This document shows positions 5,474 to 7,225 of a stretch of DNA of 64,000 bases, piece by piece. The stretch spans positions 6,208,001 through 6,272,000 of the forward strand of contig OY761556.1 of the NCBI GenBank assembly GCA_963664705.1, in the 5' to 3' direction. Each line of letters begins with the position of its first letter. The stretch's first letter is position 1. A model generated the notes under the pieces. It saw only the letters and a list, made by a program, of their open reading frames with translations. It made no database searches and was not told where the DNA came from. This DNA is from Acidobacteriota bacterium (GTDB lineage Bacteria; Acidobacteriota; UBA6911). A program made the translations under genes and the position numbers.

Positions 5474-7225
5474 CTATTTCCATTCATCAATCAAGACTCC
5501 GCGACTGAAGCGGAAGTCCGTGACGAACCAGGTAGTCTGGATATTTCCTCCCGCCACCACGATCTGAATTGCTTTTGGATTGGTGAAGGGTTTGATCAAG
5601 GTTTCAGGCGGAGCCTTTTTCCAGCTGGCGTAGGGTTCCAGCCCCTGGAATGCCATGGGCATGGTTGCGGTGGTGTTGACGCCGTTCCCCCAGTAGGTTC
5701 CAGCCGCCACTTCAACATTCTTGGCCAGCCAATCGCTCATCTGCGATTTTGTTTTGAATCCATAGACATCTTTCAGCAGGCCGGCGACCGTCGGATCGAC
5801 GACCACGGTGGATGCCATTCCCGCCAGGGAGCGCATGTAATCCCTAATCAGCATGTGCGGCGGATGATTCCGCTGTGCTTCTCCTACGCTCGATATATAG
5901 CTCCAGCCCACTCCAATGCTGACCACGTTATCGGTGCGCCGGTAGCCCATTTCCACGCTGAGAGGCTCCCATCCCGCCGGCAGCAGTTCCTCGTTTTCCG
6001 CATAGCAGACATTGTTGTATTGCAGCGTGCTGCCAAGCGTTGAATAGGCGCCGGCATTCATGCGGAGATCCCCCAGCAGTTTGCCTGCGAGTGTGAAGGT
6101 CCTTCCGATAACAGAGTTGGCCTCATTGAATGGGCCCATGGCATCGATGCCCGCATTCATGCCCAGTTGTTTACGGATCGGTCCATTCACAACAATCATA
6201 TTTGCCATGGAGCTGGTGGAATTGCCGAACGAGTTTGCCTGGCTCAAAGTGGCGAGGATTGTCGGGAAATACTCCGGTTTGGCTCCGGCCATGGCCGCAC
6301 AAATCGCGGCCTTTTCCACCGTCAATTCCCTCGAGCCCGTTTTGCTCACCACTTCACCCGGCTTGCGGCTGGTCGCTTTCAGCAGCGCCGATACCCTTTC
6401 CTCGGTGGGAAGTTCGATGGCATTGAAGTCCGTCCATTCCTTGTCTTTGAACAGGCGCTTCAGATTGGCTTCGGTGTCCGGTTTTAAAAGTCTTGGCTCT
6501 ATCACGGCACCGGAAGGCATCCCCTTGATTTTCTCATTGTCGGTGAGCGGTTTGGTCAATCCGTCGACGATGGTCTGCATCATCGGCTTGCCGCTCAGGA
6601 GATCTTTTCCGTCGACGTAATTCTTGTGAACAGATTTCGGCTGGCCCGCCACGGGGAAGGGAAATGCGACGTACCGGATGGGCATGCCGTTTGAATACAG
6701 AAGTTCGTAATCTTTGAACTTCACTACGTTGATTCCGGAGGCTCCGACAGTCGGGATGCCGGCCAGTTCGAGATTCCGTGCAAATCGGCTCACGGCCGAT
6801 ACGCAGCCATGTCAGCCACCAATCCCGATGATGGCTCCACCCGCTTTCTTTTCGGTGATTTCCTTTCGCAACCCCTGGTCATCTCCGAACGGTCCGCCGC
6901 CGGACCGGCGTATTTCCGTCTTTACGGAAGGCATGTTTTTGGCAAACCACGCCTGCATTTCTTCGAAGACGCTGTAAGCAGCCTCCGGGCCTCCCCATTG
7001 CAGATCCACCATGTAGATGGTTTTCCCTTCAAGCGTGCCGGGACGTGAACAAAGAGGGACCCGCTCTGCCATCTTCGTTGCAATGGCAGGATTCATCACC
7101 GTAATCAGCTGCTCGCCCGGGGCTTTTCCCTTCTGGGGTTGCCCTGAGGCAACGGGCGTGGGGGCAATGACTATCAGGGCAATCGCTATGATCAGAAAAC
7201 TTCCAAACAGGATTTTTTCCTTCAT
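5474..7225 (-). CDS. Secreted UGSC-family-like selenoprotein, 583 aa, Sec (UGA 6812-6814) in a U-H-G-C motif
   Basis: ORFs 6812-7225 and 5474-6793 are in the same frame. Read-through gives GAIIGIGG-U-HGCVSAVSRFARNLELAGIPTV. A hairpin follows the UGA, and a paralog at 33736-35466 has a UGA at the equivalent position. Confidence 0.85.
6779..6805 (-). promoter_or_regulatory. Putative bacterial SECIS element
   Basis: mRNA reads UGA-CAUGGC-UGCGU-AUCGGC-CGUGA-GCCGAU-UUGCA. It has a 6-bp upper stem, G at loop position 2, and the loop starts 17 nt after the UGA. Confidence 0.7.

Follow-up and report, generated by a model that had tools for sequence, protein, structure and literature searches.

The window analysed in this work, a stretch of 64,000 nucleotides, contains on its minus strand two consecutive open reading frames that share one frame, which raises the question of whether they are separate genes or the halves of a single gene whose internal UGA is read as selenocysteine (Sec) and, in the latter case, what such a protein would do. 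The upstream ORF (137 aa, 6812..7225) closes with a TGA; past this codon the frame continues as HGCVSAVSRF into an ORF of 439 aa, called from a GTG at 6793. The initial annotation had interpreted this arrangement as an exported Sec oxidoreductase split by gene calling, and the succession that it described, from the 137-aa ORF through the TGA and HGCVSAVSRF into the 439-aa ORF in one frame, was confirmed on the minus strand. The two annotated ORFs are one frame joined by an in-frame UGA, and the read-through product, P0001, has 583 aa and a single UGA (Table 1). Since positions 5300-7400 are identical, with zero letter differences, in two public contig sets of one sample, which may be where this DNA came from, the TGA is not an assembly error. 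The wider interpretation is also supported, although its two terms, oxidoreductase and exported, are properties that we infer, on good grounds. What we describe is a real, mis-annotated selenoprotein gene, a greatly expanded and, by prediction, exported variant of a known family without function.

Table 1. Positions in the window of the P0001 gene and of its parts.
Feature	Position	Strand	Details or basis
Whole gene, 583-aa UGSC/Unknown_1 fusion selenoprotein P0001	5474..7225	-	ATG 7225, TAG 5476-5474
Shine-Dalgarno GGAGG, 5 nt upstream of the ATG	7231..7235	-	sequence
Predicted signal peptide, residues 1-28 (MKEK, hydrophobic core, A-S-G|Q site)	7142..7225	-	sequence, orthologs
UGSC (Sec) domain, about residues 66-232, flavodoxin-like alpha/beta in the model, GrdB/PrdB-like around the Sec	6530..7030	-	model, profile match
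In-frame UGA, predicted Sec138	6812..6814	-	frame and homolog column
Cys141, second residue of the U-H-G-C pair	6803..6805	-	invariant in 34 aligned sequences
Bacterial SECIS hairpin, upper stem 6800-6795 with 6789-6784, loop CGUGA 6794-6790	6779..6805	-	fold, covariation
Unknown_1 partner domain, residues 240-583, without Pfam family and without invariant Cys	5477..6508	-	alignment, model

The UGA is very likely decoded as selenocysteine, giving the predicted Sec138. The initial annotation expected Cys or Sec at this column in homologs, and TGA or Cys is what the homologs carry, apart from three Leu, with TAA or TAG never occurring. In the source genome a single TGA stands at column 138/139 in 28 of 35 tblastn matches and TAA/TAG in none, and one TGA was counted in 31 of the 35 places matching the Pfam family PF24696; of the 150 matches listed for relatives, 144 contain one TGA and no more, two contain an additional stop and four are incomplete. 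In the best 79 of 476 loci from a species collection, which are kin and partly overlap with the relatives' set of 150 matches, the column holds TGA in 72, TGC in three and Leu in three, is uncovered in one and is TAA or TAG in none. Proteobacteria supply the Cys forms, as full-length proteins and in the usual Sec/Cys pairing; full-length ones occur in alphaproteobacteria. Coding constraint also spans the junction: compared with eight orthologs, pN/pS is 0.23 before the UGA and 0.20 after the GTG, and the six codons from the UGA to the called GTG are under purifying selection (0.06). Over the same six codons, where the hairpin described below starts, pS is roughly halved (0.30 versus 0.64-0.73 elsewhere). 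A Shine-Dalgarno sequence was looked for upstream of the GTG and none was found, so that the strong independent start which would have spoken for a separate downstream gene is absent.

The machinery for Sec insertion, which the initial annotation had proposed to search for, is present twice: the source genome has two selA, two selB, two selC (tRNA-Sec) and two selD, all above cut-off. One set is scattered and matches the selB found genus-wide (29 of 30 genus genomes), the other forms a cluster at 3.072-3.078 Mb and is 34-48% identical to the first. This clustered selB-selA-selD-tRNA-Sec set (L157:6597-12310; G000:C1, about 3.072-3.078 Mb) adjoins genes for a corrinoid protein, a URO-D-type methyltransferase and RACo, and in its SelD the active-site residue is Cys, the N-terminus is extended by a Cys-rich stretch and the C-terminus carries a CMD domain; two full-length selB matches were seen only in the source genome among the 30 of the genus.

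It is extremely improbable that the UGA is a real stop, belonging to two genes or to a pseudogene, or that it is read as Cys or Trp. The best 120 database proteins all start downstream of the UGA and have at most 445 aa, as two genes would predict, but gene callers using table 11 stop at TGA and would yield the same split; a true stop would also have to be reconciled with the lack of TAA/TAG at the column and with the constraint across the junction. As for a Cys reading, Cys-inserting UCA tRNAs have been described from genomes carrying a second selB (PMC5389517); however, both long UCA tRNAs of the source genome lie above the Rfam tRNA-Sec threshold (70.6 bits), and both end in G-CCA, whereas the Cys-inserting type has U73. 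In the source genome TGA closes 404 out of 1324 long frames and is therefore not reassigned. A further UCA-anticodon call by ARAGORN, of 72 nt (G000:C1:1625651-1625722), shows poor pairing in its acceptor stem and is probably spurious; three genes for tRNA-Cys(GCA) are present in the genome. Taking these data together, we consider it nearly certain that the in-frame UGA is read as Sec.

The initial annotation had also placed a hairpin with a G in its loop 17 nt downstream of the UGA, and such an element is present, folds locally and covaries. Counting the U of the UGA as position 1, its upper stem pairs positions 15-20 with 26-31, and the loop CGUGA follows after 17 nt with G as its second nucleotide. 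The bSECIS model given in PMC13188914 has a loop of 3-9 nt with a G in the first two loop positions, a distance of 16-37 nt from the UGA, a stem of 4-16 bp and an MFE of at most -7.5; with its spacing of 17 nt, loop of 5 nt, upper stem of 6 bp and MFE of -13.2 kcal/mol the hairpin agrees with this model. For the 30-nt element the z-score is -2.48 against shuffles, four out of 200 being equally good, and -2.47 against synonymous resampling, but the 75-nt window after the UGA folds no better than shuffles (z 0.02). The support for the hairpin is therefore local and comparative, and does not come from overall stability. The covariation was evaluated on 47 rows of the closer protein clade (46 distinct sequences): pairing amounts to 93.9% over the five upper pairs, 22 changes are two-sided, none of 500 shuffles was as good, and slid registers reach only 23-48% pairing on the same set. 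The clearest case is pair 16-30, in which a Ser-to-Ala change on the 5' side is compensated by a silent change in an Arg codon on the 3' side. Across a mixed set of 63 hairpins, one fixed register gives 67% pairing because a second subfamily uses a 4-nt loop and a different register. Hairpins of single paralogs are often weak, since 24 of 28 beat the mean of synonymous resampling and 11 of 28 do so at z < -1.64, and in three UGSC-type copies the same window gave no hairpin signal. In P0001, SelB would bind the hairpin and insert Sec138.

Concerning the family, the joined product matches PF24696 (UGSC) with 32.4 bits against a cut-off of 25, and this is its only Pfam match at E up to 0.1; neither ORF half alone matches Pfam or NCBIfam. 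The weakest of the 35 copies in the genome search scores 28.3 bits, and the nearest named records come from uncultured Acidobacteriota. The motif U-H-G-C had been called non-canonical, a novelty that we reject: it is a conserved UxxC subfamily motif, which recurs in Acidiferrales and Desulfatiglans records, and the literal U-G-S-C is found in only seven of the 31 Sec-type paralogs. The fusion to a large partner domain, characterised by the motif FKDKEWTDFNAIELPTEERVSALL (residues 259-282 of the read-through product), is borne out but is not new, having been reported as UGSC/Unknown_1 by Zhang & Gladyshev in 2008 (PMC2398784). By eye, the partner matches the Unknown_1 alignment in Figure S1A of that paper (A..A.MAG.[KR]PEY.P....A ... 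NG.I...L), and domains of the same type neighbour annotated UGSC genes on plasmids. The Unknown_1 Cys marked by those authors (MAGC) is Ala (MAGA) in P0001 and in nearly all of the 79 loci; the invariant residues of the domain are D266, P273, A307, M312, G348, G374, R375 and G559. A search for longer fusions gave two hits, which count as weak evidence.

Export of P0001 is highly probable, judging from its N-terminus. The signal or anchor noticed at the outset proved to be an n/h/c-region leader (MKEK, 17 hydrophobic residues and PVASG|Q) with a positive n-region and a small-x-small cleavage site, recognised by inspection and with a hydropathy script; in orthologs this part of the leader is retained as A-T-G|Q, or else has a lipobox-like Cys, and from these features we infer export, upon which the leader would be cut after Gly28. 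A simple script for start sites and hydropathy, its output inspected by eye, counted leaders in 28 of the 31 Sec-type copies of the genome (27 hydrophobic, one twin-arginine, with three copies leaderless). It is very improbable that the segment is an uncleaved anchor or unused, with the selenoprotein facing the cytoplasm. Leaderless copies do exist, namely those three and the Chloroflexota and alphaproteobacterial homologs, but the short h-region, together with the n-region and the small-x-small|Q site kept in orthologs, fits a cleaved leader, and other branches have independent leaders of twin-arginine type (MDRRK in Acidiferrales homologs) and lipoprotein type. Exported selenoproteins as such are already known, the lipoprotein SaoX being one.

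AlphaFold models were computed for the whole chain (pLDDT 87.6 and pTM 0.83 with 34 sequences) and for the Unknown_1 partner alone (94.6 and 0.93 with 109 sequences), and the whole-chain model is consistent with the two being packed as one unit. The modelled Sec domain is a flavodoxin-like alpha/beta domain of a generic kind (best Z 10.7, rmsd 2.6, 117 aligned), and the top 50 structural matches listed for it are flavodoxin-like, receiver and binding-protein domains; U138 is placed between strand 3 and a helix. A more specific likeness came from profiles: hhalign of the Sec domain against 19 Sec modules of GrdB/PrdB type gave a probability of 92 and an E of 6.6e-7 over a stretch limited to about 95 columns, Sec falling on Sec and Cys on Cys, with U scored as C on both sides. 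A response-regulator control reached 0.9; a B12-binding control consisted of two sequences only and carries no weight. PF07355 (GRDB) had no match in P0001, in the source genome or in the controls. Across the phylum, 37 of 151 genomes do have PF07355 matches, small PrdB-like proteins with U-P-x-C or Cys (L163-L186), none of them found in the source genome.

For the partner domain, Foldseek returned no match at E 0.001 (best E 0.098), the VIA structure comparison gave no clear solved match (best Z 5.5), a PDB sequence search had no match (best E 0.33), Pfam on 109 partner domains found no shared family and the ESM Atlas search returned unnamed clusters only. It should be noted that the absence of a solved match does not prove a new fold for Unknown_1.

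The number of copies is what sets this genus apart. The source genome, closed in one contig of 6.9 Mb, has PF24696 in 35 places, 31 of them Sec-type with one TGA. All 30 genus genomes have between 9 and 58 matches, and all 24 members of the same genus among 40 relatives carry 8-33; in other genomes of the phylum PF24696 was found in 12 of 150, with one or two matches each, at most 21 candidates per genome having been scored. By hand count, 41 of 58 matches in G187 and 33 of 45 in G006 bear a TGA, both being fragmented assemblies with 5-8% contamination; in the matching runs the contigs with paralogs have mostly the same depth as the P0001 gene. The paralogs are 30-60% identical and are kept as orthologous groups, and a FastTree phylogeny shows both recent duplications and deep subfamilies, the latter interspersed with sequences from Chloroflexota, deltaproteobacteria and gammaproteobacteria. 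All 31 Sec-type copies keep the resolving Cys. Four of the 35 copies have no Sec, which means that some members cannot use Sec chemistry, and at least one of these seems to be without Cys too; a Q-L-D-T-C type occurs in three of the 79 loci and recurs in other phyla. The four Sec-free paralogs include a divergent pair (L153, at G000:C1:2728200-2732400; L152; L154). A second family member lies in the window itself at 33736-35469 on the minus strand, split by a TGA at 35067, with L-G-H-U-S-V-C and a hydrophobic leader.

Other probable selenoproteins of the source genome are DUF1573 proteins, of which one immediately precedes a UGSC paralog, a metallophosphoesterase/cytochrome c554 fusion (C-G-U), an AhpF-N-type glutaredoxin, a rhodanese, MvhD and FdhA (candidate loci L209:1523-2245, L210, L211:358-1716, L212:258-896, L213 and L214). 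The de novo genome scan for Sec genes was noisy, and seven candidates were checked with Pfam.

What appears to be new here is the 31 Sec-type copies, the 28 of them with predicted export leaders and the genus-wide expansion, while the family and the fusion were already known. No report of exported UGSC fusions or of the expansion was found in the accessible literature on UGSC, Acidobacteria selenoproteomes and exported selenoproteins (including PMC12013277 and 10.1101/2022.07.06.499078). Selenoproteome surveys have probably undercounted this lineage because gene callers split every close relative in two.

The genes around family members point to thiols as the electron source. Five of nine annotated plasmid loci have a thioredoxin-reductase-type gene no more than three genes away from a family member (none was seen in three of the remaining loci, and one has a different flavoprotein), and in the cultured Neorhizobium galegae HAMBI 540 a Cys fusion that is 40% identical and leaderless (L215:871-2538) has its stop codon overlapped by a thioredoxin-reductase-like gene. 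A conserved cluster in the genus (L187, L188, L191, L193) combines stand-alone UGSC and Unknown_1 genes and fusions, both Sec and Sec-free, with thioredoxin reductase, xanthine-dehydrogenase-type enzymes, DUF6282, two DapA-like genes and CoA transferases, and may offer a way to one substrate; a haloarchaeal locus again has DUF6282 and CoA transferases. DsbD is full-length in the source genome and present in 30 of 30 genus genomes and in 10 of 14 control genomes, but is not encoded beside family genes. An exported thioredoxin-fold selenoprotein candidate with W-U-P-Q-C was observed at L208:1796-2236 on the minus strand (G000:C1:3151295-3151735), and in 20 of 30 genus genomes its best match has one TGA.

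Genes for catabolism and transport surround the family. Nine of the 36 TonB-receptor-like genes and seven of the 25 DUF8021 loci of the genome are located no more than 8 kb from a family gene, an enrichment over the 7.3% of the genome that lies so close; 11 gene families were tested in all, and the genes are clustered. An exported two-repeat DUF8021-like protein (atlas score 0.95) is in the window at 883-2712 on the minus strand, as is a cluster at 9039-14295 (minus strand) which we take to consist of three glycosyltransferase-like genes and HPr-kinase-like, PqqD-like and nucleotidyltransferase-like genes. Among 23 ortholog loci of P0001, most with 1.5-kb flanks, no conserved neighbour was found; the idea of a transcript shared with the GH2 gene 34 nt downstream was rejected, as that synteny holds for one of these 23 loci.

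From these data P0001 may be a periplasmic, thiol-powered, substrate-specific reductase of a small organic substrate, a proposal that we hold with moderate confidence. The Unknown_1 domain would bind and polarise the substrate through conserved polar residues (D266, S336, N370, R375, E410, E412), and the selenolate of Sec138 would attack it, as the Sec of the UxxC motif of GrdB and PrdB does in glycine and D-proline reductase. Cys141 would then resolve the adduct to a selenenylsulfide. Thioredoxin reductase would re-reduce this bond in the leaderless cytoplasmic relatives; in the exported copies the electrons would come from DsbD, relayed by an exported thioredoxin-fold protein, for which the W-U-P-Q-C selenoprotein is a candidate. 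Each of the diverged paralogs, roughly 30 in number, would be specific to a substrate. The mechanistic analogy with the GrdB/PrdB reductases draws on PMC13188914. Some weight stands against the reductase model because the Unknown_1 Cys is lost, four paralogs are Sec-free and no neighbour is conserved.

If the exported selenoprotein instead served general redox upkeep of the envelope, acting on protein disulfides, sulfoxides, peroxides or polysulfides, the UxxC motif would be expected, as it is the usual one of thiol oxidoreductase selenoproteins (PMC2398784), and the coupling to thioredoxin reductase and the other exported redox selenoproteins of the genome would fit as well. However, 9-58 diverged copies in orthologous groups are hard to explain for a housekeeping role, as are an enzyme-sized partner with conserved polar residues and a surrounding of catabolic and transporter genes, and we find this explanation rather unlikely. 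Unlikely to a greater degree is a role outside redox chemistry, in which the Sec would act as nucleophile or bind a metal in a lyase, hydratase, isomerase, sensor or similar enzyme or binding protein, with Unknown_1 doing the main chemistry. The persistence of paralogs free of Sec and Cys, such as the Q-L-D-T-C type, speaks for it, and so do the resemblance of the Sec domain to generic ligand-binding alpha/beta domains and the weak best structural rows of the partner, among them class I fumarate hydratase alpha (Foldseek E 0.098; Z 4.7 and rmsd 6.4 with 175 aligned) and domains resembling serine dehydratase; but these rows are at background level, the resolving Cys never varies in the Sec-type copies and the adjacency to thioredoxin reductase recurs across phyla.

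A bolder version of the reductase proposal, which we offer only tentatively, is that the family in this genus forms an undescribed class of periplasmic selenoenzymes, in which a GrdB/PrdB-derived Sec module joined to a substrate-binding domain of new fold, with electrons from DsbD by way of an exported seleno-thioredoxin, would reduce many imported organic compounds in the envelope. Its approximately 30 substrate-specific copies would make this the largest expansion of one selenoprotein family on record (31 here and, in G187, about 41 matches containing UGA). The record for a whole selenoproteome is 63 (PMC13188914), and the 31 predicted selenoproteins from one family equal half of it. Few environmental selenoprotein families are as abundant as UGSC (255 sequences in the GOS survey; PMC2398784), which still has no assigned function, and the locus offers a single-chain form, a mechanistic lead of GrdB/PrdB type and a confidently modelled partner domain without clear solved relative. 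The selenium-free full-length homolog of N. galegae makes the question assayable without Sec recoding.

Compared with known systems, P0001 shares with the DsbD-fed periplasmic reductases, which include periplasmic methionine sulfoxide reductases and peroxiredoxins, a predicted export, a predicted thiol dependence and a genome with full DsbD and an exported thioredoxin-fold protein, but it has no sequence or structure match to them and its link to DsbD is a proposed one. With GrdB/F/H (glycine/sarcosine/betaine reductase) and PrdB (D-proline reductase) it has in common the strand-U-x-x-C-helix, E..G[IV]P.V and the P-x-P loop (hhalign 89.5 to 92); these proteins work with the GrdE/PrdA pyruvoyl proprotein, and P0001 differs from them in having no PF07355 domain before the Sec, in the fusion to Unknown_1 and in its predicted export. 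The UGSC/Unknown_1 proteins of 2008 (PF24696, NF041046; PMC2398784) share with it the UxxC in a PF24696 domain, the Unknown_1 partner and the lack of an assigned function, whereas P0001 at 22.6 bits stays far below the cut-off of 125 for the NF041046 equivalog, has U-H-G-C, has Ala for the Unknown_1 Cys and carries an export leader. The source genome has 31 Sec-type copies, against one UGSC in Olavius (PMC1976440). Concerning the fold, the 2008 paper considered it 'likely Trx-like' (PMC2398784), whereas the model of P0001 is flavodoxin-like.
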